A DNA stretch of 24,101 nt, from the NCBI GenBank assembly GCA_003345545.1, contig PRDH01000064.1, positions 1 to 24,101 on the forward strand, given 5' to 3'. The notes under the pieces were generated by a model. The model had not been told where the DNA came from. It made no database searches and saw only the letters and a list, made by a program, of their open reading frames with translations. Shown piece by piece: positions 2,092 through 23,775 of this stretch. The first letter of the stretch is position 1; every line of letters begins with the position of its first letter. A program made the translations under genes and the position numbers. The stretch comes from Candidatus Thorarchaeota archaeon (GTDB lineage Archaea > Asgardarchaeota > Thorarchaeia > Thorarchaeales > Thorarchaeaceae).

Positions 2092-2140
2092 TTCTCAGGA
2101 ATGGGTCAAGATGGAAGACCATCTGCGCTGCTGGAACTCA
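2092..2140 (+). repeat. Dispersed junction repeat, copy E (plus-strand, degenerate)
   Basis: TTCTCA-GGAATGGGTCAAGA matches the reverse complement of copy B (TTCTCATGGAATGGGTCAAGA) at 20/21. It is followed by AAGACCAT and GCTGGAACTC, which resembles the first hairpin arm GCTGGAAGTC. Confidence 0.6.
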
Positions 2141-2260
2141 TGATGTGAAGAATGGCGAGATGGTGCTCGTATGTCCCAAATGCCTTAAGGCGTTTGTCGT
2201 TGCAGACTAGTACTAGATATCAAGTGGCAGACTTGATGAATAAGCTGAGCAGAATAGGAA

Positions 2261-2722
2261 TCAAGATGTGTGTAGTTTCTGCCCAAATTGAATTCCGAAT
2301 TCCAGTGCCTTATCCTCCTCGTTATCAGCGAGCGGTCCTTTCCTTCCGGTGACTTTGGATGACAGACGTCCTATCAGTTGTATACCTGGGAGCTTTTCGC
2401 GTACCTTCGCTTCCAGTTTCTTCACAGCAACATCCTTGTTGCCTCCAGTGTACGTGTCAAAGACAGCTCCAGTCTTCGCGTTCAGATGCACAATCGATGC
2501 TCTATCTATGAATTTCAAGAGATTAAGTGCTGGTTCTTGATCGTGATTAGGGCATCCGAATATGATTGCATCATAATCACGGAGGTCATCTGTGTGAATT
2601 TCTCCCGTCTTCTTGACAACTGACTCAAGCTCGGAGTTCTTGTTGATACCCCTGCTAATTGCCTCTGCAATCTTCTGTGTATTTCCATATACGCTTTCAC
2701 AGACGAGGATTACTCTCTTCAT
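2261..2722 (-). CDS. Flavodoxin-domain protein
   Basis: ESVYGNTQKIAEAI FMN-binding loop, YDAIIFGCP, GAVFDTY, A.EFG C-terminal helix. Confidence 0.9.
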   Translation of the reverse strand: MKRVILVCESVYGNTQKIAEAISRGINKNSELESVVKKTGEIHTDDLRDYDAIIFGCPNHDQEPALNLLKFIDRASIVHLNAKTGAVFDTYTGGNKDVAVKKLEAKVREKLPGIQLIGRLSSKVTGRKGPLADNEEDKALEFGIQFGQKLHTS

Positions 2723-2770
2723 GGACAATCACGCTATTGACCTCTGGTTCATCCCCTTATGTGCATTGTT

Positions 2771-2810
2771 GATTCTCTGTTGAGATATGAAGACGATGCA
2801 ACAGAGAATC
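2771..2810. promoter_or_regulatory. Perfect 12-bp inverted repeat with 16-nt spacer
   Basis: GATTCTCTGTTG (2771-2782) / CAACAGAGAATC (2799-2810), about 50 bp upstream of the flavodoxin start. Operator or RNA hairpin unresolved. Confidence 0.5.
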
Positions 2811-2904
2811 TTGGAGGAAACAAACATGACTGAGATTGTGGCATGCGATTCGAGTTGGTTTCAACACTGAAACGCTGGTGGGTCAGTGAGTTGTACTGGA
2901 AAGA

Positions 2905-4008
2905 CTAGCTGGAAGCCTGTGCCTTTCTCGCTTCCTCTTCGCGCTTCTGACGCTCCTTCTCTAGGTCCCGAATGCGTTTCTCTTTTGCTTCCTCAGCTTT
3001 CTTCACCCGTTTGTCAACATCACTCATCCGCTTTTCAGCATCGGAGAGCTCTTTCTTCCTCCGGTTGTCTACGTTCTTGTACTCCTTATTCGCATCGTCG
3101 TACTCCTGCTTTGCACCACGCAATTCGCGCTCTATACCTTCAGCACGGATTCGTTTGGTCTCAGCCACCGTACGGTAGCGTTCGACTTCTTCATCAAGAC
3201 GACCTCGCAGCTTGTCGTATTCTGACTGGAGTTGCTGACGCTCAATGTTGCATGCCTTGATGTCAGAGTCTAGCATTCGAACCTTGTCATCTCTGACTTG
3301 ATCTTCAGCCGCAGCAGAAACCATGGGACGTGATGGTTGAGCGAAGCTCTCTGTTGGCATCACCTTCGGAGCCGAAGAGAACAAAGCGCCTGATGGGCGT
3401 TCAGCTGCAGCAACCGGCTCAGTCGGTTCAAGAGAAGCAGGCTCCTCTTCAACCTCCAAACGGGTTTCTTGCGGCGGGGCTTCTGCTTTCGCACGAGCTT
3501 CTGCAGCTTTGACCCTCTCAAGTATCTGCTTCACAACTTCTTTTCCTTCTTTTGGCTCGACAGGCGCTGGTTCTGCCTCGAACTCGCCCATCGCACTCTC
3601 AGGAAGCACCGGTTCATCAGTATCCGTGTCAAGTCCCCGAAGCTCACTTGCCCTGAGCGAGCGTTCGTCCGGACTTGCATTCTCAGAGCTCGCAAATGTT
3701 TCCTGGGCTCTCTCGTACTCTGTCTTTTCCATATGACGATCAGCTGTTCTCACTCTGTCCGGCGAAACCTCGCTAGCATGTACGGTTCGCTCCACATCTG
3801 AGTCGCTCGCCACTGCTGAAAACAATGGTTCTTCAGATGCCTCTGCCTTCTTTAGGCTGGCTCCGGTGGTAACTCTTCCTACTTCGGGAATGGCTCCAGA
3901 AGGTTTTGCTGTCTTTTCTTCTGCTACCTTTAGCAGAGAGGCACCACAGCGGGTACAGTATTTTCGTGTCACATCATTGGCTCTGCCACACTTCGCGCAT
4001 ATTCTCAA
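2905..4008 (-). CDS. Zinc-ribbon protein with acidic/Pro-rich linker and long C-terminal coiled coil
   Basis: N-terminal CAKC-x10-CTRC; E/P/A-rich middle; last ~125 aa E/K/R-rich helical. TTG start after AGGAG. Confidence 0.85.
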   Translation of the reverse strand: MRICAKCGRANDVTRKYCTRCGASLLKVAEEKTAKPSGAIPEVGRVTTGASLKKAEASEEPLFSAVASDSDVERTVHASEVSPDRVRTADRHMEKTEYERAQETFASSENASPDERSLRASELRGLDTDTDEPVLPESAMGEFEAEPAPVEPKEGKEVVKQILERVKAAEARAKAEAPPQETRLEVEEEPASLEPTEPVAAAERPSGALFSSAPKVMPTESFAQPSRPMVSAAAEDQVRDDKVRMLDSDIKACNIERQQLQSEYDKLRGRLDEEVERYRTVAETKRIRAEGIERELRGAKQEYDDANKEYKNVDNRRKKELSDAEKRMSDVDKRVKKAEEAKEKRIRDLEKERQKREEEARKAQASS

Positions 4009-4316
4009 GTTGGAAACACTCCTCTAGGCTCAAGTAATGGCTTTACTATGGAAACAAGGGCAGATATAGATTTGGCGTATCCTTTTGCTGAAGAAAACAC
4101 GAGTCTGTGGTTATTTGCTCGCTAACTCATAGGGCTCCAAGCCATCTTCAGGATACATCAGAATGAGATTGAAGGTACTCCTTCATGCGTCCCTTCTCAA
4201 GGCTAATTGGACCCGGCATTCTGGATTTCATTCATCTTTGCTCGGTAAATCTAGTTGGTAAGTTTAATTAGAAAGAGAGTCCTGAGGAACAGTACCCTTG
4301 ATAGGGAGGTTAGGAA

Positions 4317-7008: not shown

Positions 7009-7387
7009 ATTGCTTGACCTCAGAAAAACAATCCTCTTCGTAAGAGGATGTATCTGATATGACTGCCTAGCTATATACGGCTAATGATGAGTTGAAAAAT
7101 CGGTCTGTGAGCAGCTGTTGTGGCTGATTTAGAAGATTGTATCATATATGATGCAATAATAGAGCTATTCCGGGACACAAGAGGAAATCCTGAACTCGAA
7201 AAGGATGGCCTTTTGTACATACGTATCCAAATGGATTGTGATGTGATCATGCAGGGAACAGAGTAGTATCGAGAAGACAAGAATAGAAGCCAACAAGTTG
7301 CCCGTTCTCATGCCCTGCCCCGATTGCCTTGCAGCTGCTTTGGACTTAAGTCATTCGCTCACATCATGGGCTTATGATTTTGATGCA

Positions 7388-8956
7388 CTAGAGGTTTTGT
7401 TTGTCCATTTCTTTCAACAACTCATCAATGAATCGATCTTGAGCTATTATTGATTTCTTTTCCTCTGATCTCAAATCACTCTTGTCAGTTGGTTCTTCCT
7501 GAGTCGGGAAGAAGAGCTTTGTCTGACCTTTCATCTCTTCATCTATCATCATCTTCAGAGTGGGCTCAAGTATCAATGCAGAAGTCATAGTTACTGAAAT
7601 GGATGCTTTCGTTGAAGGCTCCTTTCGAAGAAGCAAAACATCGCCTGTGAATAATAGGTCTGACAAGTCAGCATTTCCTCCATCACGAGGAACTTTGGTT
7701 TCATGGTAGGTGATAATGAACGACGCCGGACTATCACCTCTTATTTCGTTCAACATGCATGGCAAAGAGTCGCAATAAACTCTGCCGCCTCCAGTCCCAA
7801 AAGTCGTTACACAATGAACAGAGGGCAACCCCAAATGGGGAGCATAAGAAGAGATTCTCTTGAGCTCTCCATTCACGAGACTGTGAACCAAGTCTCCAAC
7901 CGATGTACCTACTTTGACGTGGAGTTCAGTCAAATACCTGAGATACAATCCACCGCTACTCGGAGCAGAAGAAGAATCATCCGTCTTTCTGAAATACTGG
8001 AAAAAAACCTTCACTGACTGAATCGAGCCTTCACCTTTCTTAAGAGCATCTCTCAGTAACAGCGATTGAGAATAAGGCGAGTCACCTTCCTTGAAAGTAC
8101 CCAGAGTGTTCAAACATTGATCAGTCTTGTTTTGTAGTGCGTATAGCCGGGCAAGTTGCCATCTGTTGGAAATGTTATCCGGATTCTTTGAAATCAGCCT
8201 ATCCAGAATCCTCTCAGCATCGCGGTATCTCTCCTGATGAATGAATATTCCGCAAAGGATACTCAGAATCTCCGGATTGAGAATGTGCTTCCTCAGATGC
8301 CTTTCCACGAATTTCACAACTTGTTCAGTATTCCCTTGTAGAGATAACAAGAAGCTAATCAGCGATGCGGCATCAACGAGATTTCTGCTGGATTGAAGGA
8401 ATTTGCCTACTCTTGCAGCCTCATCCGTTCTAGACAGCGCCCTGTATACTAATTCAAGATTCCTCCAAGAATCCTCGTAGAGGGGATTGTGTGTGAGTGC
8501 CGAAAGATATGCACGCTCAGCGGAATCAATCCTACCCATTTTGTCGAGGAGAACGCCATAGACGTTCCAAGATTCGGGATCACTATCATTGAGTTCGAGA
8601 GTCTGCTTCATGTATTTCAAGGCTTCATTGAATTGACGAAGTTCCATATGACAGATAGCAAGAGATTCTAGCTGCAGCCTGAACATCTTCCTGTAGTCTT
8701 CCAGAGAATATCTTTTAGGCAATAGCAAGGTTCTGACAGAGATTTCAGGGCGCTTCTTTGCTTCTGCCTCCTGTAGGGTGGCTCTCATCAGAGTCGATAA
8801 GGTTGTCAGCGGACCCATTGCTCTTGAGAAGTCTTTTCGCTGCATACATTTCTCTGCGAGAAGTAGGTTGGATTCAAAATCATTCGGAACCTTCCTCACC
8901 ATGTCCTCTAGCTGTTCAACAGTGAAGATCTCAATGATATTGATCTTGTCGCCCAA
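7388..8956 (-). CDS. TPR protein with C-terminal beta-grasp-like (TGS/ThiS/MoaD-like) domain
   Basis: TPR consensus (ESWNVYGVLLDKMGRIDSAERAYLSALTHNP; RWQLARLYALQ). C-terminal LHVKVGTSVGDLVHSL...DLLFTGDVLLL. Confidence 0.85.
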   Translation of the reverse strand: MGDKINIIEIFTVEQLEDMVRKVPNDFESNLLLAEKCMQRKDFSRAMGPLTTLSTLMRATLQEAEAKKRPEISVRTLLLPKRYSLEDYRKMFRLQLESLAICHMELRQFNEALKYMKQTLELNDSDPESWNVYGVLLDKMGRIDSAERAYLSALTHNPLYEDSWRNLELVYRALSRTDEAARVGKFLQSSRNLVDAASLISFLLSLQGNTEQVVKFVERHLRKHILNPEILSILCGIFIHQERYRDAERILDRLISKNPDNISNRWQLARLYALQNKTDQCLNTLGTFKEGDSPYSQSLLLRDALKKGEGSIQSVKVFFQYFRKTDDSSSAPSSGGLYLRYLTELHVKVGTSVGDLVHSLVNGELKRISSYAPHLGLPSVHCVTTFGTGGGRVYCDSLPCMLNEIRGDSPASFIITYHETKVPRDGGNADLSDLLFTGDVLLLRKEPSTKASISVTMTSALILEPTLKMMIDEEMKGQTKLFFPTQEEPTDKSDLRSEEKKSIIAQDRFIDELLKEMDKQNL

Positions 8957-9065
8957 GTACGCGGCCCCAGATGTTATTGCGCTGTAGTGACCAATAAATG
9001 TACTGACTGATGGTTGGCATCAATCTCTTGAAGCAAGGTACTTGTATCGGAAAAACAAAAGAGCT

Positions 9066-9160
9066 GAGCTGGTTGTCAGCCGACTTCCAGCACATTCGAG
9101 GAGTGAGATTACTTCGTGGTCTTGGCCCATTCATAGACAGGTTTACAGAACTCCTTCAAG
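9066..9160 (-). repeat. Dispersed junction repeat, copy A
   Basis: Plus strand: GCTGG-TT-GTC-AGCC-GAC-TT-CCAGC (9068-9091), then GAGATTACTTCGTGGTCTTGGCCCATTC, then N15 and AGAACTCCTTCA. Confidence 0.88.
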
Positions 9161-9226: not shown

Positions 9227-10627
9227 TCAATGTCGAGATGACCAATTGGCCAGTTCCTTTGTAGTCTGACTTTTGATCACAGGATAATAAGTAACAAGCC
9301 GAAGATCATCTATCATAGACATTGGCGGAGTCAGCAGAATTACATCTCCAGATTCAATTAGATCGTTCTTATCATTTACAGGATTGATTCCACGATGAGA
9401 TCCACGTTCCATGAACTTAACGATAAACGCCCCAGGTTGGAATTCTTGGAAAAACCAAAGCTTGGTTGACAGTGCTTCAGTCATAACTTCTGTGCCAGTC
9501 TTGGCAAAGACCATGTGAACAATCACTGATTTGAGATGCTCGTCTGTGGTAAAACGATTCACGTCGCCCTTAGTCAAGGCGTGAATTGCATCTTCGACTG
9601 TTGCGCCTAAAGGAAGAGAAAGGACGGGGAACACTGTGTAAGCAAACAGCTGAGAATCCATTATTTCCGGAGAATCAGCGAAGGTATTTGTCTCATCCTC
9701 TACACTCAGTACTCCGAATGTCTGGATTGCTCCAGGTTTGGTTGCTTTAAGTAATGACCTAAGGGCAAGAGCATTGCGATGTTCGGGGTCGATTTTAAGA
9801 AGTCTATCAAGTAGTTGTCCACACCCTCTTCCATTTCCTAGCATGCAATGTACTCGGGCAAGATGCCATAATGCATCCTTGTTTTTCATATCTATATCAA
9901 GGATTTTTTTTAGATACCCCACCGAGTCAGCCAATGAGCCCTCCAGTATTCTAAGTCGTGCCAGTGATATTAGTCCTCTGATTTCATCGGGATTCCACTG
10001 CAGAATTTGATTGGCGATAGCCAGTGTTTCATCATAATACCCTGATGATAGATTGAGTTCAGCAAGCAGGCCCCAATTACGCTCTATATCCATCTTGCTT
10101 CCAAGCACAGCATTGATTTCCCTAGCTTCTGGTCTTCCAAGATGCCTGTAGCATTTCTGAAGATTCGTCCACAAATCGACCCGGCCAGGACTGAGCTTCA
10201 CTGCCCTAAGAAATGACCTGCGTGCTCCCTCGGAATCCTTACAACCTACTTGAGAAATACCCATGAGATTCCAAGTGTCTGAATCATCACTAGTAATTAG
10301 CAGAGCACGATCGAATGCGCTTTTTGCATTTTTTGGTTGGTTTAGTCTGAGTAGTGAATCGCCTCTCATCATGTAGAAACTGTGCAATACTTTGACTGCC
10401 ATATCAAACGGAAACATGCCGATTTCGTCAGGTTTCTTGTCCACTTCCACTTGAAGGATCTCAGCAGCTTTTTGAAGAGGTTCGATGGCTTCGGAATATC
10501 TCCCTGCTTGATATAGAAGTTCACCAAGGAGACCCTGTGACTCATGAGAATCCGGATTGTTCTTCACACGGTCCCTTGCATCTTTGATCATATATGACTC
10601 ATCAGTTGGCATAAGATGACCTCTCAT
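9227..10627 (-). CDS. TPR protein, paralog of 7388-8956, with C-terminal beta-grasp-like domain
   Basis: TPRs (LLGELLYQAGRYSEAIEPLQKA; DTWNLMGISQ; ALWHLARVHCMLG). C-terminal LSLPLGATVEDAIHAL...DLIESGDVILLTPP. Confidence 0.88.
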   Translation of the reverse strand: MRGHLMPTDESYMIKDARDRVKNNPDSHESQGLLGELLYQAGRYSEAIEPLQKAAEILQVEVDKKPDEIGMFPFDMAVKVLHSFYMMRGDSLLRLNQPKNAKSAFDRALLITSDDSDTWNLMGISQVGCKDSEGARRSFLRAVKLSPGRVDLWTNLQKCYRHLGRPEAREINAVLGSKMDIERNWGLLAELNLSSGYYDETLAIANQILQWNPDEIRGLISLARLRILEGSLADSVGYLKKILDIDMKNKDALWHLARVHCMLGNGRGCGQLLDRLLKIDPEHRNALALRSLLKATKPGAIQTFGVLSVEDETNTFADSPEIMDSQLFAYTVFPVLSLPLGATVEDAIHALTKGDVNRFTTDEHLKSVIVHMVFAKTGTEVMTEALSTKLWFFQEFQPGAFIVKFMERGSHRGINPVNDKNDLIESGDVILLTPPMSMIDDLRLVTYYPVIKSQTTKELANWSSRH

Positions 10628-10732
10628 AATCCTGATGTCATGGAAATCCTTGGACGCTGCCCTAAGGCTATGTTATTAGTTGGCCCGTATTTAAGACCTC
10701 TCAAGAATTACGTTCTGTACGAGCAGGTCCGT

Positions 10733-10750
10733 TCATCGTCTTGGCCAGTC
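10733..10750 (-). repeat. Dispersed junction repeat, copy F (core only)
   Basis: TTCATCGTCTTGGCCAGT versus copy D TTCATCGTCTTGACCCAT; lies a few nt after the LRR stop codon. Confidence 0.55.
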
Positions 10751-10753
10751 TTT

Positions 10754-11974
10754 CTATTTGGATGATTTCTTCTCAATTCTGTTTCTCAGTGATTCGAGAC
10801 CTTTGGGCCAAGTACCAGATGATTTTGCAGAATCAATCACAAGCCGAGTTCTCTTATCGACTGACAGGATCTCTAAATCGTGGCACCCCAAAAGCGGAGT
10901 GACATCAATCTCAGAAAAGCTGTTGTCTTTTAGTAACACTCTCCTGAGCGAAGAGCATGCTGCTAGAGGTGTAAAATCGATTGAATGAATAGCATTCTTA
11001 TTCAAGCTCATAACTTTGAGAGAGCTATTGCCCAACGGCGTAAGATCTATTTGGGTCAGGCTGTTCTCCAGTAGACTAAGATTCTCAAATGCCGGGCTAT
11101 TCGATAGAGGTCTTAAATCAATCTTCTGGAGCTTGTTCCCACCTAGCCACAGGACCCTAAGCCTACTGCAGGACTTCAATGCACTCAAGTCGATACTGTG
11201 AAGTTGATTGTTGGAGAAATAGAGCTTCTCTAACCCCTTGGATGACTCTAGGCCTGAAAGATCTAGAGACTGCAGTTGATTCTTGCTCAGATCCACCACT
11301 CTTAAGTTCTGCAAATCTCTCAAAGAACTAAGATTCAATGTAGTCAGCCTATTTGCCCTTAGATTGAGATGTGTAAGTCGCTTCATCTTGGAGATGGGAT
11401 TCATATCGAATTCATTCAGACCCATACTCCACAGATTCAGCACTCTCAACGACTCAGGCAATTGACTACTGTCAAGTCCTTGAAGATAGTTTTGGGCTAG
11501 CTGGAGTATCTCGAGGGACTTGCAGTGCTTCAAAGGTTGTAGGTCTAGATTCTGGATATTCGCATATCTCAAATCAAGACTCCTCAATGCAGGACATTTC
11601 GCCAAGGGCAAGAGATCAAGACCCCTACTTAGTAGATTTCTCTGGAGAACAATAGCCTTCAAACATGGATGTCCAGCGAGGGGCGAGAGATCCAATTCCT
11701 GCAGTTGATTATATCCAAGTATCAAGGTCTTGAGTTTCGTTGCATGAGCGAGCGCATCCAAATTGATACGCCCAATTTGATTCTTCGCAAGATTGAGTAG
11801 TCGTAGATTCTTCATTTCACGAATGTCAGTTAGTTCAATCTCCTTGATGGGTGCTGGACGTTGTCGAGAGAGATTAATGAACGATTCACCATCACTGTAG
11901 CGCCTGACTTCACTCTTTGTTTCTGGACCTCTTCCAATATACATCACATATGTCTTGAATGTAATCGCGGGCAT
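10754..11974 (-). CDS. Leucine-rich repeat protein (22-aa SDS22/internalin-like repeats)
   Basis: About 14 repeats of LxxLxLxxNxLxxIDLxPL; AGGAGGT RBS. Confidence 0.95.
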   Translation of the reverse strand: MPAITFKTYVMYIGRGPETKSEVRRYSDGESFINLSRQRPAPIKEIELTDIREMKNLRLLNLAKNQIGRINLDALAHATKLKTLILGYNQLQELDLSPLAGHPCLKAIVLQRNLLSRGLDLLPLAKCPALRSLDLRYANIQNLDLQPLKHCKSLEILQLAQNYLQGLDSSQLPESLRVLNLWSMGLNEFDMNPISKMKRLTHLNLRANRLTTLNLSSLRDLQNLRVVDLSKNQLQSLDLSGLESSKGLEKLYFSNNQLHSIDLSALKSCSRLRVLWLGGNKLQKIDLRPLSNSPAFENLSLLENSLTQIDLTPLGNSSLKVMSLNKNAIHSIDFTPLAACSSLRRVLLKDNSFSEIDVTPLLGCHDLEILSVDKRTRLVIDSAKSSGTWPKGLESLRNRIEKKSSK

Positions 11975-11986
11975 GTGTTGGACCTC

Positions 11987-12301: not shown

Positions 12302-12476
12302 TCTGCTCAGCCTCTTTCTTGTTTATTATAGAGGTCAGCAATTGAAATGCAAATATCGAACTGCACCTCAATAACATCCAAATCAATAGTGATGTTCAGT
12401 CATTTAAATGGTCGCTATGAGCATTAGCTAGTGGCCAAAAGAAACCAATTGGAAATTCGTATAAATGGAAGGAGAA

Positions 12477-14746: not shown

Positions 14747-14873
14747 GGTGATTCACGATACAACCACGTGCAAAACAGGATATCTAGCTGCGTCAGGTAT
14801 GAAGTTGGCAGGAGTATCAGAAGAGGCTCAAAGAGCGTCAGTTTGTAAAGACAGCGCTTTACAGAGTGGCTGG
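14486..14873 (-). repeat. Duplicated segment, copy 1 (upstream region plus 5' end of ABC ATPase)
   Basis: Aligns colinearly with 16716-17067, for example TGCAAAACAGGATATCTAGCTGCGTCAGG is identical in both. Confidence 0.93.
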
Positions 14874-14964
14874 AATGAATCCATCCGAAACTCAAAGGCA
14901 ATTTATCGAGATCTTGCGGTGTGGTATCCCAGAGAACGAGAGAAGTTGGAAAATTAGGGGAGTT

Positions 14965-14995
14965 AAAAAAAGTGAAGAGGGCGGGAAGCCCTCTT
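14965..14995 (-). terminator. Hairpin plus T7 tract
   Basis: AAGAGGGC (14975-14982) / GCCCTCTT (14988-14995), then CACTTTTTTT on the minus strand, 3 nt after stop 14999. Confidence 0.75.
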
Positions 14996-14998
14996 AGA

Positions 14999-15754
14999 CT
15001 ACATTGATACTATTTTATCGCGGTTGAATCTCCTAATTGCAAGAACCCATGTGACGATTGCCAGCACAGATGCGATAAGTAGCGTGAAAATGTCAGACAA
15101 CCATACAAGGTTCATGTCCACATTTCCTGTATTGCTTATTGACAACATGGGTAGAATCAGGGGAATTAGGAGGACCATAACGACTGCTCCAGAGGCCTGA
15201 TAGGCCTCGTAGACACGCTTGACTCTCCCACTGATGAGAACCATCACTGATACTACTGCCGCAATGAGAATGGGACCTGCTACCAGAAGCAGAAACAGAC
15301 TGGATAATCCTGGAAAGAGGATTGCCTGAGCTCCCACAGACGTGAGTATTATGATTGTGGCAATCTCTGTGACAAGGACTGAACCAAGTAGAAGAGCAAT
15401 GGTCGGAATGAATGAGCTCAATACTTTGCCGATCAGGAGTTCACGATCTGTCAAGGGTGTGCATAGGAGAGCCTCAAGAGTGTTCTGTTCTTTTTCACCT
15501 ACAAGGGCATTAGCAGAGATCATAGACGCCGGAATGATGACCATGATTCCAATCACAGGTGACATCACTGGATCCAGCATTGCTATCATAGATGCTGCAA
15601 ATGCTGGTGCTGATATTGCGAACAGTAAGGCAAGTCCAATTAGCATAATAGGTGCCATTGCAGCCATCATGACCAGACCATACTTGACCATCTTCACTTT
15701 CATTGCCATTCGTAGGTCAGCTCTGGCAACGACCATCGATTTCCACAGAGCCAT
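14999..15754 (-). CDS. ABC-2 type transporter permease
   Basis: ALVGEKEQNTLEALLCTPLTDRELLIGKVL motif, six TM segments; TAATG coupling with the ATPase. Confidence 0.93.
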   Translation of the reverse strand: MALWKSMVVARADLRMAMKVKMVKYGLVMMAAMAPIMLIGLALLFAISAPAFAASMIAMLDPVMSPVIGIMVIIPASMISANALVGEKEQNTLEALLCTPLTDRELLIGKVLSSFIPTIALLLGSVLVTEIATIIILTSVGAQAILFPGLSSLFLLLVAGPILIAAVVSVMVLISGRVKRVYEAYQASGAVVMVLLIPLILPMLSISNTGNVDMNLVWLSDIFTLLIASVLAIVTWVLAIRRFNRDKIVSM

Positions 15755-16695
15755 TATTGGACACCTCCATTTATGACACCAAGGTACAGGTCTTCTAGTG
15801 TCGCCTCTTGTTCCGCAAATTCGATAATATTGACCCCATGCGACAATAGCGATTTCATTAGAGTTGAGTTATTGCCCATTGGGTCCTCAATAGTGACCTG
15901 GAGAGAGTCGACTTCCTTCTCAGCAGATGTCACGAATTTCATAGACTTGGCAATAGATAGAGCCTTCTCCAGATCATCGGTAACACGAATCGTGAAATTC
16001 TGGCTAGCCTGCAATTTAGACTGAAGCTCCTTGGTCTTGCCGCTGAGCAATATCCGACCCTTATCGATGATTGCAATCCTGTCGCAGATTCTCTGAACCT
16101 CCGCCAGATTGTGTGAGTTGATGAAGAAAGTCTGTCTGTATTTCTCGGCAAGACTAAGAATGAGTTCTCGAACCCTCTTGGCAGCAATGGGATCTAATGC
16201 AGATGTCGGCTCGTCCAATAGGATCACTCTTGGTCGGTGTAGTAATGCACGGCACAAAGCAAGACGCTGGCGATTGCCTGTGCTTAACTCCCCAGCAGGA
16301 TCATCCTTTCGTTCCCAGAGCCCCATGAAGCTCAGCAGCTCCTCTATCCTTTCTGGTATCTCCGCCTCAGGAATTCCATAGAGCTTGCCAAAGTACTCCA
16401 GATTCTCGTACGTTGACATTGCAGGATAGAGCGTATGATTGCTCTCTTCTGGCATTACGCCAATTATCTCTCGAACACTTACTGGTGATTCGATGATATC
16501 AAAGCCCCCTACAGATGCTGTGCCTTCACTGGGTTTGAGAAGTGTGCAAAGGAGTCGAATTGTTGTGGACTTACCTGCTCCATTTGGCCCTAGCAGTCCG
16601 TAGATCGAACCCTCAGGGACATTCAGCTCAATATGATCGACGGCCGTTAAGTCGTCAAATCTCTTTGTTAGATCTTCAATTATTACTTCATCCAA
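15754..16695 (-). CDS. ABC transporter ATP-binding protein
   Basis: GPNGAGKS, LSTGNRQR, ILLDEP, NSH; TTG start after GGAGGT. Confidence 0.96.
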   Translation of the reverse strand: MDEVIIEDLTKRFDDLTAVDHIELNVPEGSIYGLLGPNGAGKSTTIRLLCTLLKPSEGTASVGGFDIIESPVSVREIIGVMPEESNHTLYPAMSTYENLEYFGKLYGIPEAEIPERIEELLSFMGLWERKDDPAGELSTGNRQRLALCRALLHRPRVILLDEPTSALDPIAAKRVRELILSLAEKYRQTFFINSHNLAEVQRICDRIAIIDKGRILLSGKTKELQSKLQASQNFTIRVTDDLEKALSIAKSMKFVTSAEKEVDSLQVTIEDPMGNNSTLMKSLLSHGVNIIEFAEQEATLEDLYLGVINGGVQ

Positions 16696-16706
16696 TTTAC
16701 TACCTC

Positions 16707-16940
16707 CTAAACTAAGATTCTTTTGTTATCCATTGTGAGGTCATGACCAAGAATTATTCCGCCGCCCGATGTGGGTCGAGTTAGACCCAAGACTAGCTTG
16801 ATCGTTCTTGTCTTCCCAGCACCGTTTGGACCCAGGAATGTGAAGACCAAGTTCTTCGGTACCTCTTGATTACCAAGCCCGTAAGTTTCAATCGCAGTGT
16901 GGTCTTCATTTTCCTTCGGTTTTTCTCGTGATTCTGTCAT
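16707..16940 (-). pseudogene. Truncated paralog of the 13757-14746 ABC ATPase (77 aa)
   Basis: [36 protein letters not shown] matches the N-terminus of 13757-14746, with a net 12-codon deletion, and stops after Walker A. Confidence 0.9.
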
Positions 16941-17067
16941 GGTGATTCACAAGTGCAACATCTGCAAAACAGGATATCTAGCTGCGTCAGGCATGAAGTT
17001 GACAGGAATATCAGAAGAGGCTCCAAGAGAGCCACTTTGTAAAGAAGCCGCATTACAGAATGACTGG
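16716..17067 (-). repeat. Duplicated segment, copy 2
   Basis: 352 bp versus 388 bp for copy 1; the 36-bp difference equals the in-frame deletion. Confidence 0.93.
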
Positions 17068-17077
17068 CCGAGCCTAT

Positions 17078-17992
17078 CTAAATCCCTGCGGCCTGAATGG
17101 CCTCCTCAAGACGGAGTCTCTTGATGCTCTTGTAGTTATGTGAGGGTCTGTAGATGAAGGCTTCAGAATATAGTATGCCGGGGTGCGACTTAATCTCGGC
17201 TGTAATCGTGTCAACGTGATTCATGTTGTCAACAGTCACAGCAACCATCAGAATCGGGTCACTTGCAGAAGGAAGAATCTCCCATAATTCGTCCTGGTAG
17301 TTCTTCAACAGCATATCTGTGATTTCATTCCTTGAGGCTTGCTTTGGATCCCATTTCAGTCTTAGAAGAACGGTCACCCTATCACCCACGTTAAGATGCC
17401 ATCTCAGTCCGAACTTGATTGCCTCGCTCTCCTTTAGTTCTCGCAATGTCTTTCGAACGAGGCGCACTGTCAGACCAGTTTCTCTTGAGATGTCACTAAT
17501 CAACATCCTAGCATCCGTAAGGAGTGCTTTGAGGACCCTTAGCTGAAGATGCGTCAGGCTTGTTTTCTTACCTCGTGGTCTAAGTATAGTATGCATTTCA
17601 GTGGAACTGACATGGGGATTGCTCTTGAAGGCTTCAGAAAGAGCCGCCAGCTCGAGCGAGCTTGTATACTCCGCACCTACCAAATAGTCTCCTCCATAAA
17701 GGGGAGAAATCTGCATCACGCCTTTGTTCATTGAAATATCTGATATGAATTGCTCTCTGTCTTCTGCGGCATCTGTTTTAAGCCAGACCAGCATGACTTC
17801 AGAGCCAATCATGGCTGGCGCGAACTCAACAATGAATTCTATTATAAGTCCACTAGCGACTATATCATCGACTCTACTCTTAATGGCAGTAGCGGACATT
17901 CCTAGAGATTTGGCAATCTCTCGATACGAAGTTCTGCAGTCACTAGCTAGAATGCTAACTATCTGCTTGTCAATATGATCTAGTTTGGGCAT
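17078..17992 (-). CDS. Two-domain Lrp/AsnC-family transcriptional regulator
   Basis: LDHIDKQIVSILASDCRTSYREIAKSLGMS and a second HTH LQLRVLKALLTDARMLISDISRETGLT. ATG 17992 preferred over the longer ORF-track start. Confidence 0.92.
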   Translation of the reverse strand: MPKLDHIDKQIVSILASDCRTSYREIAKSLGMSATAIKSRVDDIVASGLIIEFIVEFAPAMIGSEVMLVWLKTDAAEDREQFISDISMNKGVMQISPLYGGDYLVGAEYTSSLELAALSEAFKSNPHVSSTEMHTILRPRGKKTSLTHLQLRVLKALLTDARMLISDISRETGLTVRLVRKTLRELKESEAIKFGLRWHLNVGDRVTVLLRLKWDPKQASRNEITDMLLKNYQDELWEILPSASDPILMVAVTVDNMNHVDTITAEIKSHPGILYSEAFIYRPSHNYKSIKRLRLEEAIQAAGI

Positions 17993-18001
17993 CAAAAGAA
18001 C

Positions 18002-18032
18002 TATCAATATGGAATTCATTAATGTATTGATA
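18002..18032. promoter_or_regulatory. AT-rich inverted repeat directly upstream of the Lrp/AsnC gene, candidate operator/promoter
   Basis: TATCAATA (18002-18009)-N15-TATTGATA (18025-18032), 10-40 bp upstream of ATG 17992. Confidence 0.5.
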
Positions 18033-18107
18033 ACAAGATCCTTTCTTGAGAATGACTCCGAGAACAAGATAAGATCAGTTTCAATGCTCTATCTGAGAAT
18101 ATGAGGT

Positions 18108-18836
18108 CTATTGACTGTCCAGTCGCTTAATCGTTTCAAGTGCAATCTTGAACACATTCCTCTCGCCGAGCTTGAACTCATCAACTCTTTGCCCCTTGAA
18201 TTGATTCTCGGTGGTGACAAGATTTGAACCCACCGTGAGAATCCCACCTGCCCTCTTTCCCAAGTCAATTGCTGCCATCAAGACTGCTGACAGCTCCATA
18301 TCAAGGGCCACGGCACCAAGTCTGGTGTACTGCCTATTGAGTTCTCGCAAGCGGTTTCGGAGGTAGAAGTTCTCGCATGTCCTGACAATTCCTGCAGGGT
18401 ATGATACTTCTGCTGCCTTTGCAGACTCTATCAGGCTCGTGAGAACCTCAAAGTCTGGTATTGCGGGGAATGACAGAGTTGCGAGTTCGAGGGTGCATCC
18501 CTCATCTCGAATACAACCGGTGGCGATTATGATGTCACCCAGTGCGATCTCTGGTTGATAATTCGCACATGTTCCAATCCGAATGAAAGTATCTGCGCCG
18601 ATATCTGCGAGTTCCTCGACACAAGTCACAGTTGAGAAACAACCCAAGCCGGTTGATATGACTGTGATCTCGACTCCCTGATACTTGCCGGTGAAGGAGA
18701 GGTACACCCTATGACATGACATCTCCTTTGATTCGCCAAACATTGACACTGTCAGTCGTGCCCGTTCTGGAGACCCGGGCAAGAGAACGTACTTCGCAAT
18801 CTCATCTTCCTTGAGCCCTATGATGGGTGCTCTTCT
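18108..18836 (-). pseudogene. Uridine/purine nucleoside phosphorylase (NP-I family), lacking a canonical start codon
   Basis: Homology extends upstream of TTG 18782 (IIGLKEDEIAKYVLLPGSPER) to an in-frame TGA with no ATG/GTG. Motifs STGLG, EELADIGADTFIRIGTC, RDEG, DME. Confidence 0.7.
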
Positions 18837-18841
18837 TCAGA

Positions 18842-19051
18842 TCACATCGGCGGATTCTTGTGAATGAAGTAGAGAGCGTAGACAGATGATGCGACCGCCA
18901 CAAGAGCAGCTACCGTAATTATGATGGAGATATCAACCATATAGACTACTAAAAGAAAGCCCATTACGAGATAGATCAATACGTTCACGTAGAGCAGTCG
19001 TCTAAGATAGTTCCTGCCTGTCTCATCGTAGGTTGGGATTACATCCCCCAT
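18842..19051 (-). CDS. Small two-helix membrane protein (69 aa)
   Basis: GAGGA RBS, ATG, two long hydrophobic stretches. Confidence 0.75.
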   Translation of the reverse strand: MGDVIPTYDETGRNYLRRLLYVNVLIYLVMGFLLVVYMVDISIIITVAALVAVASSVYALYFIHKNPPM

Positions 19052-19121
19052 ATCAGCTCTTCCTCACACAGGACTATTGGTATTTCGACTAAAAAACAAT
19101 TGGAATTCTACTAAACAGATA

Positions 19122-19297
19122 GAGGGAGATGCTCCGAACTGCTTTGACCTAGCCCATTCGTAGACCGGTGCACAGGGTTGCTTCATACGCTGCTTTTCCG
19201 GCGTCATCGCGACACTCGGCTTCCACCCATCAGCAGGCTTGAGCCAGAAGTCTGTGACCGTGCCCTGTCGTTCGTTCTGAAGTTCGAAGATGGGCTA
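19122..19297. ncRNA. Candidate structured RNA or element containing junction-repeat copy H
   Basis: Nested helices 19150-57/19290-97, 19172-77/19263-68, 19180-84/19247-51, 19187-92/19199-204, 19218-22/19241-45. GCCCATTCGTAGACCGGTGCACAGGGTTGCTTCA aligns without gaps to copy A GCCCATTCATAGACAGGTTTACAGAACTCCTTCA. Confidence 0.45.
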
Positions 19298-19424: not shown

Positions 19425-20057
19425 TCAACTAGCCTTCAGGAATGACATTACAAAGGAACACCATTTGTCCTTCAGTTTGAGATATTCGCTATCTCGTGCC
19501 ATCGCCACATCTCTCATCAGTCTGGATGCATCTTCCTGTTGATGTATTGACAAGCTGTTCCAGAACTCCGCATTGGTGATTGTGAGTGCTGAGCTGACTT
19601 GATTCTCTCGTTCAAACATTCGTTCAAGTATGCTCAGTGCCTCAGCCAATCTTGTTTCCGGGATACTGACTCCATACGCTTCAAGACCCAGTAACATATT
19701 GCGGAGTCGATCCTTTGCATAAGCCTTCATCCCATCGTTTGACTTCATCATGTCTGCAATTCCAAGACGGTATTCTCTGGCTGTCGCTCTATAGTAGCGC
19801 TGAACAATTCCAGTTGTGGTCTTTTCAGTGCGGACCTGCTGGACTAGGCCCACACTCTTTAGCCGTTCGATGTGCCGTAGCACATTTCCTGGATTCTTCC
19901 CTATGGCATCGGCAAGTTGTTTGACTGTCATCTCCTCATTGACAAGGTATTTGAAAACAATCAACGCACGTATCTTGTCAAAGAGGACTTTGATAGTGTT
20001 TGGGTCTGTTATGATCTCAAGATCCTTCATTAGCCGAGATGCACTCACTGGATTCAT
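19425..20057 (-). CDS. ArsR-like winged-helix transcriptional regulator
   Basis: IKVLFDKIRALI..EMTVKQLADAIGKNPGNVLRHIERLKSVGLV..RYYRATA. ATG 20057 is 1 nt after the upstream stop. Confidence 0.9.
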   Translation of the reverse strand: MNPVSASRLMKDLEIITDPNTIKVLFDKIRALIVFKYLVNEEMTVKQLADAIGKNPGNVLRHIERLKSVGLVQQVRTEKTTTGIVQRYYRATAREYRLGIADMMKSNDGMKAYAKDRLRNMLLGLEAYGVSIPETRLAEALSILERMFERENQVSSALTITNAEFWNSLSIHQQEDASRLMRDVAMARDSEYLKLKDKWCSFVMSFLKAS

Positions 20058-20058
20058 T

Positions 20059-20958
20059 CTACGTTGACTCCTTCGTGTGGGATTCTTGTACTTCTTTGAT
20101 GTTCGGATCTGAAATGATGAGATACGTTCTCGTCGCCGAGAGCACATAGACCGGCAATAGCAGCAGACCGATTACAAGAACTGATGCGACTATGTAGAGA
20201 TCATACGCTGCTCCTGTCAAGAATATGAAATCAGTGAACTCTTGGAATATGATGGGTCCGAGCAGCAGTAATCCCAAAGACGAAAAGGTAATCCAAATTG
20301 AGAATACAGCTCTGAAGTTGTGTCGAGTTAGCTGTATTGAGTGCTTGGTGGACGATGAAATGGACATACCGTCAACTATCGAGGGAAAGACCAGTGATAA
20401 TATTCCTGAACTGAACAGAAACCAGGCAACTGCTGTAGCGACTAGAATCGTGAACGCGGAACTATCGGGCATTCGGTCTCCATAATACCATGCCGCAAGG
20501 ATGTATTCCATCCCGATTGGACCGACTATTATGAGGAACTGAACCATTCCTCCTGCAGCTAGACGAGCAAACTTCTGCCGATACCAAAGCAGTACTTCCT
20601 CGGCAGATATGCTCCCACTCTCCATGACTTCCTGTCCCATTCCGAATAGTGCACCCAGAGCTGTTAGAAAAGGCGCTAATAGTGCAGAACCTGCGAACAA
20701 GGCAATACCGACTGCTTCAACATCGCTTGCGCGGTCCAATGCAAGTCCAATAGATTCGAAGACATCGAACATGTCATCAAAGGGACCATAGACAAATGAG
20801 AGCAGTATGCTCCCTATGAATAGTATCGACAGAAACAGGCTCACCGTTATGACAAAGACACCGAGTATTGCTAAGAAGATCGAGAGGTAGTATGTACGTG
20901 TGAATGAAACGCTCAGCTGAATTGTTTCAACATAGTCCCTTAACTTCCAGCTACCCAT
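20059..20958 (-). CDS. Multi-pass membrane protein
   Basis: About six hydrophobic helices; 5 nt after the peptidase stop. Confidence 0.85.
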   Translation of the reverse strand: MGSWKLRDYVETIQLSVSFTRTYYLSIFLAILGVFVITVSLFLSILFIGSILLSFVYGPFDDMFDVFESIGLALDRASDVEAVGIALFAGSALLAPFLTALGALFGMGQEVMESGSISAEEVLLWYRQKFARLAAGGMVQFLIIVGPIGMEYILAAWYYGDRMPDSSAFTILVATAVAWFLFSSGILSLVFPSIVDGMSISSSTKHSIQLTRHNFRAVFSIWITFSSLGLLLLGPIIFQEFTDFIFLTGAAYDLYIVASVLVIGLLLLPVYVLSATRTYLIISDPNIKEVQESHTKEST

Positions 20959-20963
20959 CTATT

Positions 20964-22799
20964 TCACATCCGTTTTTGCTTTCTATAGACTATGAAGATG
21001 CTACTAAATACTACGATAATCAAGATTGAGAAAGGAAGGACAAGCGAATCAGATATTGATGGACTCCTTGTATCTCCCTCAGTGATTGTGAAGTCTAGAC
21101 CTTCTGTTGGGATCTCAGCAAGTGAGGACACATCTTCATGATCAGTCGGCGTTACGTGTGATATTAGACTCGTTATCACATACACTTCTTCAGCCTCAGC
21201 GCTTTGAATATACTCAGAGAGTGTTCCAGACGCTGAATACAATTGAAACTGTGATACATGCCAGCCGCTGGAATTCCTGACGGCTACGACTACCCCCACA
21301 GCATATGGATACGGATTCTCAATCGCAATCGTGAAGTTATCAGGCGGCGCAGTCAGTTTGTTTACATCGAAACCATAATGATAGTGTATGGTATTCTCCT
21401 CCATGATTGGATAGTTATTCCCTAAGGCTGTGTATCTTCGTGTTGTATAGTTTAATGACTCGAATCCATAGACACCATCCTCAATCTCAGAGTCATCCAA
21501 AACGCATGCTGTGATGAAGTCAAGATAGACATCATTGAATGTCAAATCATATCCCGCATCAGCGAGTGCAATCTCAACAGCTGCTGGCCCGTCCTCACTT
21601 ATACTCACGAGACACTTCACAGTATTCACACCAAATCTCTCAGCAAGATAGGTTACAAAGAGATATGCCTGACCATAGCTTGCATCCCAGTAGACGCTGT
21701 AGAACCTGTTGAAATGCAGTAGGGACACCTCTGGATGATACGTGAAAGCAGTGGTGACTGCATCCGTTATATGAGACCAGAATCCTGTGAGATCTACAGC
21801 CAGATTGGCTAATCCCTCCACAAGAAAGTCCGCTTCATCCATCTCGTAGTTGTTCCAGATTAGATGATTGAACTCATGGGTAGTAATGCATAAAGTATCA
21901 TTCAGGTCCATCTCCGCATCTACATAGACCATTTCTCTCCGATTCGAATATGGACCAAGAAACTCATCCTTAGGATCATCGAATCCAAGATACGCTCGTC
22001 CCATATTCCTCACCAATGGTGCCAGAAACACTGTGACTCTGGGATCACCATCGATATCTCCAAGATGACCATCTGGATCTCCCGCTATCTCAATTGCCTT
22101 GGGGTAAATCACATCATCGAATATTTGCCCAAGGTGGTGGCATTTCGTGATTGCTGCTTCTTCACCTAGAATCTCGATGGATGAGTTTGCCATGTACATA
22201 TAGCAGGATATCCCAGGAAATAGAAGAGTTGCCCTCACTTCGCTAAATCCTGGAGATTCCGGCCACATGAGATGAGTCCAGAATACTTGTTGATTCCCGA
22301 AGGACTCTGAAGCTAGCCGGAATTCCTCGACCGTAGTCTCTTTCTCGATTTGGACACTTGCATTGTCAGGAGTGAAGTCAACCGCGAGATAAACTGTTTT
22401 CACCTTGCTGTATTCATCAAGGAATCTGAAGGTGAACTGATATGCGGTTCCTGTAACAAAGTCGCCATAGATGTCCAGAGTCAGGGTTGCGTGGAAGGGA
22501 GTGTCATAGGCAGACTCATTCGTTTCACTGTATACTGGATTGAGGTCAGCGACAGATGGCTCACACTGGAGCGTCTGAAGTCGGAGCTCTTCATCGAATG
22601 GCTCGAAGATGCCAAGAATCTGAACGCAGTCAGGTCGCATATTGTTGACCCCAATACTCATGAGGACGATGTCAGACTGGTTATTGCCCGAAGCTGCGAA
22701 GTAGACTACACAGCCCAAGCTCCCAAACACTACAATCAATGCGATGGCTAGCGCCATGCGCCTCGTTGACCCCCGTGGTAGGTGCTCTTCGGATGACAT
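20964..22799 (-). CDS. Membrane-anchored HEXXH zinc metallopeptidase (M30/hyicolysin-like)
   Basis: N-terminal signal/TM, GDIDGDPRVTVF, THEFNHLI + FLVEGLA third ligand, YGQAYLFVTYLAERFG, C-terminal TM with basic tail. Confidence 0.88.
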   Translation of the reverse strand: MSSEEHLPRGSTRRMALAIALIVVFGSLGCVVYFAASGNNQSDIVLMSIGVNNMRPDCVQILGIFEPFDEELRLQTLQCEPSVADLNPVYSETNESAYDTPFHATLTLDIYGDFVTGTAYQFTFRFLDEYSKVKTVYLAVDFTPDNASVQIEKETTVEEFRLASESFGNQQVFWTHLMWPESPGFSEVRATLLFPGISCYMYMANSSIEILGEEAAITKCHHLGQIFDDVIYPKAIEIAGDPDGHLGDIDGDPRVTVFLAPLVRNMGRAYLGFDDPKDEFLGPYSNRREMVYVDAEMDLNDTLCITTHEFNHLIWNNYEMDEADFLVEGLANLAVDLTGFWSHITDAVTTAFTYHPEVSLLHFNRFYSVYWDASYGQAYLFVTYLAERFGVNTVKCLVSISEDGPAAVEIALADAGYDLTFNDVYLDFITACVLDDSEIEDGVYGFESLNYTTRRYTALGNNYPIMEENTIHYHYGFDVNKLTAPPDNFTIAIENPYPYAVGVVVAVRNSSGWHVSQFQLYSASGTLSEYIQSAEAEEVYVITSLISHVTPTDHEDVSSLAEIPTEGLDFTITEGDTRSPSISDSLVLPFSILIIVVFSSIFIVYRKQKRM

Positions 22800-22903
22800 G
22801 GGTCACATAACGTTTGCTCTTATTAAAAACGTTTGCTGTAAGCGCAAACGTTCGCCTGCGGCGCATTAGATCTCTGCGAAAATCAAGAGAAAAAGAAGGA
22901 AAT

Positions 22904-22976
22904 GATCTGGTTGTCGGCAGACTCCCAGCTCGTTCATATCGCCGTTATTTCATGCTCTTGACCCATTCCATGAGAA
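22904..22976 (-). repeat. Dispersed junction repeat, copy B
   Basis: CTGG-TT-GTC-GGCA-GAC-TC-CCAGC then TTATTTCATGCTCTTGACCCATTC; core lies about 20 nt after the vapC stop. Confidence 0.9.
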
Positions 22977-22987
22977 GCCAACGTAGG

Positions 22988-23392
22988 CTATATCGGGTCC
23001 ACGACATCGACCTCAGGAATTCGTCTGAATGCTTGATCGTGAGTCATCAAGTTGTGTATGCCCTCAAGTGACATTGTTGCAAGGATTGTAGCGTCTCTTC
23101 CACCTATTCCAAGGTGAGTGAATTCACTGAGTTTTGTCAGTGTCAGTTCAACCACCTGCTCATCAATCTCATAGAGCGGCATGCCATAGCTCAAAAAGAC
23201 CCTTCCCTTCTTCTCGCCCTCCAGCGGACCTAGACGTTTTACAAGATAATGCAGAGTTTCAACAGAGATTGTTGCGTTGACTGCAACCTGATTCTTCTTT
23301 AGGAGGGACTCAAGAGGTTTGATGACCTTGACATGTTCTGGAAGAGTTGAATCAAAGTAGTACGCCCACATGTTACTGTCGACTAGTATCAC
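22988..23392 (-). CDS. vapC: PIN-domain (VapC) toxin
   Basis: ILVDSN, E in ISVETLH, RDATILA, LMTHDQAF acidic tetrad. GTG 23392 overlaps the antitoxin stop as GTGA. Confidence 0.93.
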   Translation of the reverse strand: MILVDSNMWAYYFDSTLPEHVKVIKPLESLLKKNQVAVNATISVETLHYLVKRLGPLEGEKKGRVFLSYGMPLYEIDEQVVELTLTKLSEFTHLGIGGRDATILATMSLEGIHNLMTHDQAFRRIPEVDVVDPI

Positions 23393-23622
23393 GACACTGT
23401 TCTCCAAATCTCTTTTAGTTTCAGTGGATCAATGTCACCCTTTACTACGATGCACCCTCTGAGTTCGGTCATGAAATCACTCAGGTCAACAGCCTTCTCA
23501 ATCCTCACTCCGTTCTTCCCTGCAATAATACGCACACGAGCTTTGGTTTTGAGACCAGTCTTCTCGCGAAGTTCCTTTGGAATGGTGACTCTACCTCGTT
23601 CGTCAATGTCGTCAGTACCCAT
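23389..23622 (-). CDS. vapB: AbrB/MazE/SpoVT-family antitoxin
   Basis: IDERGRVTIPKELREKTGLK swapped-hairpin motif; ATG 23622 after GGTGA; coupled to the PIN gene. Confidence 0.92.
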   Translation of the reverse strand: MGTDDIDERGRVTIPKELREKTGLKTKARVRIIAGKNGVRIEKAVDLSDFMTELRGCIVVKGDIDPLKLKEIWRTVS

Positions 23623-23702
23623 TTCACCGCCCACACCCACATTCATTCCAATGGTTATCAACCTTGCGACCATGTGGAAGTTTACAGAAGAACAAGGAAA
23701 AC

Positions 23703-23775
23703 GAGCTGGTTGTCGCGTGACTCCCAGCCCCTTCACATTGAGATTATTCCATGGTCTTGACCCATTTGAAGACAT
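23703..23775 (-). repeat. Dispersed junction repeat, copy C
   Basis: GCTGG-TT-GTC-GCGT-GAC-TC-CCAGC (23705-23728), then GAGATTATTCCATGGTCTTGACCCATTTGAAGACA. Confidence 0.9.

Follow-up and report, generated by a model that had tools for sequence, protein, structure and literature searches.

The stretch of DNA examined here, hereafter the window, is the entire 24.1-kb contig C64 (24,101 nucleotides) of G000, a metagenome-assembled genome (MAG) of a Candidatus Thorarchaeota archaeon that totals 2.69 Mb in 82 contigs. We found that the window comprises most of a hypervariable cassette array hung on the 3′ end of a gene for a DUF35-family protein, with copies of that gene's end (att copies) lying between the cassettes. 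All att copies share a core of ~20 bp under synonymous constraint, different species share cassettes at the same junction, and no known recombinase was found in cis. We consider it somewhat probable that such arrays grow by serial insertion of non-autonomous cassettes at the core, which lies in the last codons of the gene, through a trans-acting recombinase. Related genomes and related loci are denoted below by G and L numbers, respectively; the repeat-bearing relatives are MAGs of Candidatus Thorarchaeota or Promethearchaeota.

Read on the minus strand, the repeat unit consists of the end of an open reading frame (ORF; ..Y-E-W-V-K-T-M-K-stop), ~20 nt, a hairpin (GAGCTGG..CCAGCTC) and a T/C-rich tract. 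Sequence comparison showed each unit to be the 3′ end of a thiolase-associated DUF35 (zinc-ribbon/OB) gene, referred to as the anchor, whose last 8 to 130 codons are present in the units together with the stop codon, hairpin and T-tract. The preliminary description of this DNA had proposed looking for a full-length parent of the repeats, and this parent was found in G001, where the 5′-most copy ends an intact gene of 270 codons with the domains PF12172 and PF01796 (DUF35/ChsH2 family zinc-ribbon and OB-fold), directly after a thiolase-like gene. At least 15 other genomes have the same intact thiolase–DUF35 pair at the head of their copies, and the copies downstream of it are 3′ fragments of the anchor spanning 17 to 128 codons. 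Most related genomes sampled contain the intact gene followed by 1 to 11 more co-oriented copies on one contig.

An intact anchor is absent from the G000 assembly, where only paralogues of 26–33% identity are present, and we place that of the window's array just beyond the contig end, which lies 325 bp upstream of the copy designated C. A metagenome scan for the C-type junction returned one 1.1-kb contig from the same population (L151), which is 99.3% identical to the window end and only extends the array to one further copy. We attribute the missing anchor gene to the tendency of repeats to break assemblies. At three loci, L059 (G005:C95), L040 (G030:C7) and L052 (G032:C20), the att core was seen on or beside a different, shorter DUF35 paralogue, which sits within a cluster of two thiolases and two DUF35 genes; this paralogue is 28–40% identical to the G001 anchor overall, with the last ~20 codons nearly identical.

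The hairpin that follows the stop codon is maintained by compensatory changes. Its outer stem was paired in 95.8% of cells, compared with 24–51% in slid controls, in an alignment that was fitted to the model and therefore leans towards structure, and 13 sequences carried a C-G to U-A swap. The hairpin and pyrimidine tract reported in the preliminary description are thus both present, the former with covariation behind it. An additional helix proposed by RNAalifold inside the core (helix 1) showed no covariation and was dropped, and a scan of the window against Rfam (E up to 1) and for tRNA gave no match.

We detected copies with nhmmer and with a covariance model (CM) built from four units of the window, A to D, which strongly match one another (nhmmer E values of 1e-20 to 1e-27; CM scores of 101–121 bits), all lie on the minus strand and are confined to contig C64 within G000; the copies were also aligned. 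Copy A (9047–9153, core 9119–9132, GAATGGGCCAAGAC) retains ~28 nt of anchor coding sequence 5′ of the core as well as the hairpin and T-tract, and copy D (12443–12558, core 12524–12537) likewise has ~28 nt of coding sequence (MKEL..) and, past its T-tract, the 3′-end remnant of a convergent cassette gene of 192 codons. Copy B (22877–22985, core 22955–22968) has a short 5′ arm, the hairpin and the T-tract. In copy C (23669–23781, core 23754–23767, AAATGGGTCAAGAC) only ~7 nt 5′ of the core are anchor-like, the stop codon, hairpin and T-tract are kept, and the junction with the upstream cassette is the same in G001 and G003. A fifth copy, H (19098–19291, minus strand), is decayed: tblastn and reading of the sequence revealed a 49-codon anchor fragment (19145–19291) with 71% identity to anchor residues 220–268 and 80% nucleotide identity to the native gene of G001, followed by a core remnant (GAATGGGC/TAGG) with an indel, a mostly deleted hairpin and a remnant of the GAATTCC-AATTG block.

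The preliminary description had counted seven copies, of which these five stand, H in its decayed form. Its copy F (10732–10751, minus strand), between the leucine-rich repeat (LRR) and tetratricopeptide repeat (TPR) genes, is possibly a decayed core, matching at 17 of 19 positions with one gap, and was not significant (nhmmer E = 7.4). Its copy E (2099–2112, plus strand) matches only 13 nt of the core (nhmmer E = 1.4) inside a conserved zinc-ribbon-like ORF of 91 codons (1935–2210) whose 83%-identical orthologue in the congener G001 lies on another contig (G001:C22:4834–5103) and lacks the motif; on these sequence grounds we take E to be a chance match rather than a copy. The G001 orthologue was found ~3 kb from a gene for a 201-residue serine recombinase (G001:C22:1317–1724). 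The TGAAG(G/C)AR block described upstream of several copies corresponds to the anchor codons M-K-E-L.

Across 36 genomes of the same family, the CM detected copies in 31, with up to 12 matches in G001, and within each genome the copies occupied one contig and one strand. A second family sample gave copies in 24 of 40 genomes, and 15 other families of the phylum yielded no CM copies except two weak matches. The scan of the window's own and related genomes suggested in the preliminary description thus places the copies at a single locus, always behind the same gene; the "dispersed" family described there is instead one cluster per genome.

We next compared the copies position by position. Among 62 aligned copies, the sole stretch common to all is ~20 bp long, GTC(W)(W)(Y)GAATGGGTCAAGAC; this core, GTCnnnGAATGGGTCAAGAC, corresponds to the codons V-x-E-W-V-K-T. 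Similarity ends at differing 5′ positions, as had been noted from the window alone: in more than ten independent cassette types the limit falls at −5 to −10 from GAATGG, and in others it reaches approximately −380. On the 3′ side the limit lies at +14 in at least four cassette types, and a few copies diverge right after ..AAGAC. Two features expected of tandem elements at a gene 3′ end were therefore observed, namely a short core at which all copies coincide, and direct repeats of the target 3′ end with the intact gene at one end.

The core is also conserved at synonymous sites. A tally of 24 distinct native genes showed third positions nearly fixed at codons −10 (GTC, 20/23), −8 (GAA, 22/24), −6 (GTC, 23/24) and −5 (AAG, 22/22), whereas codons −11, −9, −4 and −2 and the stop codon vary freely. 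For Glu, GAA is preferred in the core and GAG is commoner at other positions of the same genes. From these codon patterns, ~18 bp appear to be under a DNA-level constraint that coding does not account for.

The units between cores vary in size and content. Across the arrays of 21 genomes, 46 core-to-core intervals ranged from 492 to 9667 bp with a median of 1.7 kb (16 of the 46 were 1.2 kb or shorter), and 58 array ORFs were co-oriented with the repeat compared with 44 in the opposite orientation. The co-orientation of genes and repeats noted in the preliminary description holds in the window and does not hold in general. Cargo in the relatives includes HepT/MNT pairs, GNAT proteins, S-adenosylmethionine (SAM) methyltransferases, a CAAX protease, beta-helix surface proteins and an HNH/HerA pair. 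The last was observed in a unit beside the intact anchor of G001 (L038:6560–11499, equivalent to G001:C10:26560–31499), which encodes a 1028-residue HerA/FtsK-like ATPase and a 618-residue protein with five NUMOD3 motifs and an HNH nuclease domain; the two could be a defence pair or a homing-type nuclease.

Cassettes recur across species at differing array positions. The surface-protein cassette upstream of copy C occurs in G000, G001 and G003 with one junction (..GACTATGTCTTC|RAATGGG), as the first unit behind the gene in G003 and at the eighth interval in G001. The next unit is the same toxin-antitoxin cassette in both G000 and G001, beyond which the arrays diverge. A methyltransferase cassette is present in G001 (twice), G010 and G014 with a single right-hand junction, and G017 and G027 share one whole unit, bounding att copies included, at 86% identity. 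Long anchor fragments frequently resemble the native gene of some other species more closely than the resident gene; for example, one in G001 has 86% identity to the G020 native gene, and one in G032 has 90% identity to the gene of another genome. Past the att copy of the native gene, no sequence was common to any two of 24 species.

We then explored whether a recombinase accompanies these arrays. None of the ~35 ORFs of the window matched a recombinase, transposase or reverse transcriptase in Pfam, PHROG or NCBIfam scans, in agreement with the preliminary description. Among ~100 array ORFs of at least 90 codons from the 21 genomes, none was annotated as, or clustered with, an integrase; scans of these ORFs gave cargo families or nothing, with DDE and HUH families not searched genome-wide. 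In a cross-check of tyrosine recombinases (PF00589) over a family sample of 41 genomes, 25 of them with att copies, no att contig carried a match (0/25) and 13 of the 25 att-bearing genomes had no match at all; in the other 12, the PF00589 genes lay on other, mostly small contigs. G000, G001 and G017 gave no PF00589 match anywhere, PF16795 was without a match in these three genomes and in G003 and G024, and PF00239 was without a match in G000 (sub-threshold only), G017 and G003. In the sample as a whole, 25 of 41 Thorarchaeaceae genomes had no PF00589 match, several of them 97–99% complete, and for this reason the family seems to lack a universal XerA-type tyrosine recombinase.

Searching from the core outward gave a similar picture. 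No convincing core was found beside integrase genes or on integrase contigs, where a pattern allowing two mismatches occurred at background level, and six matches on viral contigs all lacked flanking similarity and were consistent with chance. Several cassette proteins were considered as hidden recombinases and set aside: those of 611, 299 and 236 residues are, respectively, HExxH protease-like, multi-pass membrane and signal-peptide/transmembrane surface proteins. The 192-codon gene was rejected as a conserved neighbor or general enzyme, being intact beside the anchor in only two genomes; it has no family match, and distant paralogues of 27% identity occur elsewhere in two genomes. A 367-residue protein on the distal flank has a zinc ribbon plus a coiled coil and is not a recombinase.

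How might such an array be built? In the explanation we favor, the ~20-bp attachment core GTCnnnGAATGGGTCAAGAC within the last codons of the DUF35 gene would be matched by the same core on small non-autonomous DNA circles, where it would stand between a replacement gene end (last codons, stop codon, terminator hairpin and T-tract) and a short element-specific arm. A trans-acting recombinase would join circle and gene by a conservative, site-specific crossover at the core, such that the incoming unit supplies a new tail, the anchor gene stays intact and the old tail is pushed downstream. Repeated events would line up cassette after cassette behind the gene, every one of them ending in a co-oriented gene-end copy whose 5′ extent is set by the cassette in front. 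Because each unit would bring a replacement tail, nearly all copies would be expected to keep the 3′ part, with the 5′ part dispensable and cassette-specific. Of the three readings offered in the preliminary description, the one that the data show is that the copies are scars left where a single gene's 3′ end was the target of repeated integration, the target being the DUF35 gene. An integron-analogous array served in trans is borne out as regards small shared cassettes, variable order and the lack of an integrase, and fails as regards the defining features of integrons considered below. A truncated mobile RNA or miniature inverted-repeat transposable element (MITE) is rejected, because every genome has its copies at just one locus and that locus invariably follows the same gene; in G000 they occur only on contig C64, and they have no Rfam match.

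Several observations weigh against serial insertion at the core. No recombinase was identified, leaving the central step an inference, all genomes compared are MAGs and species representatives, and neither excision nor a circle was seen at the population level. The synonymous constraint could reflect an RNA-level function or another DNA-level one. The segment from core to T-tract is not always linked to the downstream cassette, as in the methyltransferase cassette, whose hairpins differ between G001 and G014. A crossover at some other point of the ~100 nt in common could account for this, as could blurring of the signal by gene conversion. Finally, arrays behind other anchors in G000 have unrelated repeat sequences, and thus several specific enzymes would be needed, or one that does not read sequence.

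The main rival, which we regard as unlikely yet worth serious attention, dispenses with a dedicated enzyme: cassettes would loop out by homologous recombination between flanking copies, enter other cells and integrate through a RadA-type single crossover anywhere in the ~100–400 nt shared with the anchor 3′ end. This would accommodate the lack of an integrase in cis, and of any at all in many genomes, together with the arrays behind several unrelated anchors in the same genome, repeat lengths from 20 to ~400 nt and the loose link between hairpin type and downstream cassette. However, similarity upstream of the core extends over only 5–10 nt in many cassettes, and in a few copies it is absent downstream of the core, leaving too little for homology on the side concerned; the limits of similarity also converge on one 20-bp stretch instead of being scattered. 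Nor would homologous recombination be expected to impose a position-specific synonymous constraint on the core, and it leaves unexplained how a cassette first acquired an anchor end. We judge it improbable that the units are decayed autonomous integrative elements or proviruses whose own tyrosine or serine integrase was later deleted or lies on unbinned DNA. Such elements classically leave direct repeats of the 3′ end of their target gene, mobile DNA is lost during MAG binning, and PF00589 genes do lie on other contigs in 12 of the 25 att-bearing genomes; yet the array ORFs and att contigs yielded no integrase, the 16 units of 1.2 kb or less, although conserved as wholes between species, are too small ever to have contained an integrase plus cargo, and no integrase gene was found with the core beside it and no viral contig with similarity around the core.

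Two further possibilities fare worse. That the window is a true integron array without an integrase (a cluster of attC sites lacking integron-integrases, CALIN), with the units as attC sites, strikes us as very improbable: Thorarchaeaceae MAGs with attC clusters and no IntI were listed by Ghaly et al. 2022 (PMC9668308), the cargo is integron-typical (toxin-antitoxin systems, GNAT proteins, methyltransferases, ~1-kb units) and each unit contains a structured hairpin, but the sites reproduce the coding end of a host gene, have a conserved core and lack R″/R′ (GTTRRRY) boxes, IntI is missing, genes run in both orientations (58 versus 44) and the proximal end is a housekeeping-type gene rather than attI/intI. 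The least probable account invokes no mobility, only local duplication of the gene end by unequal crossing-over or slippage, or 5′-truncated retro-copies or MITEs. While variable 5′ truncation with a common 3′ end is what it would predict, this account is already contradicted by the unrelated intervening genes that recur in other species at other positions, by fragments often foreign to the resident gene, by the restriction to one locus per genome and by the absence of a reverse transcriptase.

Serial insertion at a gene-end core, as we favor it, would be closest in working principle to the composite islands of the staphylococcal cassette chromosome (SCC) at rlmH and to tandem tRNA islands such as tycheposons, while cargo and cassette size resemble those of integrons and of the integrase-less attC clusters of Asgard archaea. 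In SCC and SCCmec, the core lies in the last codons of rlmH (orfX), the gene stays intact, and elements stack with each bounded by a core copy; CcrAB or CcrC serine recombinases are present in many islands, and many units have no recombinase of their own and are served in trans. The array likewise has its core in the last codons of a conserved gene that remains intact, and successive units bounded by direct core copies. Unlike SCC, it yielded no recombinase of any known family in cis; its units are much smaller, with a median of 1.7 kb, and its repeats often take in a long part of the gene tail together with the terminator. In tycheposons, newcomers push older elements inward, partial target copies are scattered and the cargo is adaptive and defensive; tyrosine recombinases are carried, and the islands retain integrase fragments (Hackl et al., bioRxiv 10.1101/2020.12.28.424599). 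Stacking behind a target gene, partial target copies and adaptive or defensive cargo are common to both systems, whereas the DUF35 anchor is a protein-coding gene and neither an integrase nor an integrase fragment was seen in the arrays.

For integrons, attC clusters without an integrase have been reported in Archaea with enrichment in Asgard, most archaeal cases being without an integrase (Ghaly et al. 2022, PMC9668308). The arrays resemble these in their small shuffled cassettes, similar cargo and a hairpin in each recombination unit; unlike integrons, their sites are host gene-end copies with a conserved core rather than attC, and there is no gene orientation bias. The array head is a thiolase–DUF35 pair and not IntI beside attI, no GTTRRRY was seen at the unit end by alignment, and in place of mostly single co-oriented ORFs we found units of 0.5–9.7 kb, some of them multigene. 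As regards tandem elements, the scans run found no recombinase gene in any array element. Archaeal integrative elements with pNOB8- or SSV-type tyrosine integrases also insert site-specifically at the 3′ end of a conserved gene and leave direct repeats, the SSV-type elements splitting their own integrase on integration. The DUF35 arrays resemble these elements in their position at a gene 3′ end and in their direct repeats and differ in that no integrase of their own was found (PF00589, PF16795). Tn7-type insertion is known to leave only short (~5-bp) target duplications and is not known to leave gene-end copies. A preprint on Tn7 in Asgard, considered as a precedent, makes no mention of Thorarchaeota or thiolase. 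The literature searched contained no description of such arrays in Thorarchaeota or Asgard.

Within the window, the array can be followed from the contig end inward. A surface-protein gene with a signal peptide and transmembrane anchor (23836–24101, plus strand), cut by the contig end and antisense to the att copies, clusters with L042:8529–9239 and L037:3597–4217. Between copies C and B lies the toxin-antitoxin cassette (22988–23640, minus strand; 799 bp core to core), with a MazE/AbrB-type antitoxin and a PIN toxin identified by Pfam, whose homologue in G001 stands behind the same upstream cassette. The next cassette (19425–22799, minus strand), closed by copy H, encodes a membrane-anchored HExxH metalloprotease-like protein (611 residues), a multi-pass membrane protein (299 residues) and an ArsR-type helix-turn-helix protein (240 residues), and this three-gene module is also present within the arrays of four other genomes.

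A large segment from H to D (12581–19051, minus strand) contains, according to Pfam and the ORF calls, a 69-codon ORF, a PNP/UDP phosphorylase, a double winged helix-turn-helix regulator, two ABC-2 transporter sets and a 128-codon ORF. Inside its ABC-transporter portion we noticed a direct duplication of 77% identity (14486–14873 and 16716–17067); a 77-codon ORF there (16707–16940) corresponds to an N-terminal fragment of an ABC ATPase and is probably a pseudogene left by the duplication. Between D and A (9227–12301, minus strand) are a 104-codon ORF, a 406-residue LRR protein and a 466-residue TPR protein, and distal to A is a 522-residue TPR protein (7388–8956, minus strand). Beyond this, a fragment at 7141–7257 (plus strand) encodes residues 130–168 of the 192-codon cassette gene, the 3′ end of which accompanies many att copies in relatives; the fragment is probably the trace of a junction between cassettes that has decayed on the distal side of copy A. 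The gene for the 367-residue zinc-ribbon, disordered and coiled-coil protein (2905–4008, minus strand; clustering and Pfam) belongs to a family of 330–380 residues found in eight genomes, and it lies beyond the last detected att copy in all six loci checked (the window, L011/L061, L054, L053, L044 and L058). This placement suggests that it is the native far flank of the array in the genus.

G000 also harbors other arrays. A second, larger one (G000:C81:68485–80330) has at least ten co-oriented units of ~100 nt that end in GCTGTTGAGCCACCC plus a T-tract, with variable 5′ limits and copies 0.4–3 kb apart. Three copies of a ~130-nt unit, 97% identical, were seen at G000:C34:20084–22136, and a 470-nt direct repeat, 79% identical and 2.1 kb apart, at G000:C35:814–3408. 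The DUF35 arrays had no cassettes in common with these other arrays beyond distant homologues, and hence each anchor has its own cassette pool, as would be expected if a cassette is tied to the anchor sequence that it carries.

What is new here is the DUF35 anchor, the 20-bp core with its synonymous constraint and the family-wide cross-check against tyrosine recombinases. The core offers a handle for finding the enzyme, as a defined DNA bait and as a defined junction to be sought in reads, and the arrays bear on how the published integrase-less "archaeal integrons" and Asgard gene flow are read. If the favored explanation is true, these arrays would be one of the main ways in which Thorarchaeota acquire and reshuffle accessory genes for surface proteins, toxin-antitoxin systems, transporters and modifying enzymes, and this shuffling would proceed without the recombinases that define integrons, SCC or tRNA-island elements. 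More tentatively, and with odds that we place a little short of even, Thorarchaeota may run a lineage-wide system of gene capture without an integron- or phage-type integrase, in which small cassettes enter short core sites at the 3′ ends of conserved genes, here DUF35; the agent would be either an undescribed kind of recombinase or a host pathway able to read the anchor copy on the cassette. Such a system would do the work of integrons in the prokaryotes most closely related to eukaryotes.

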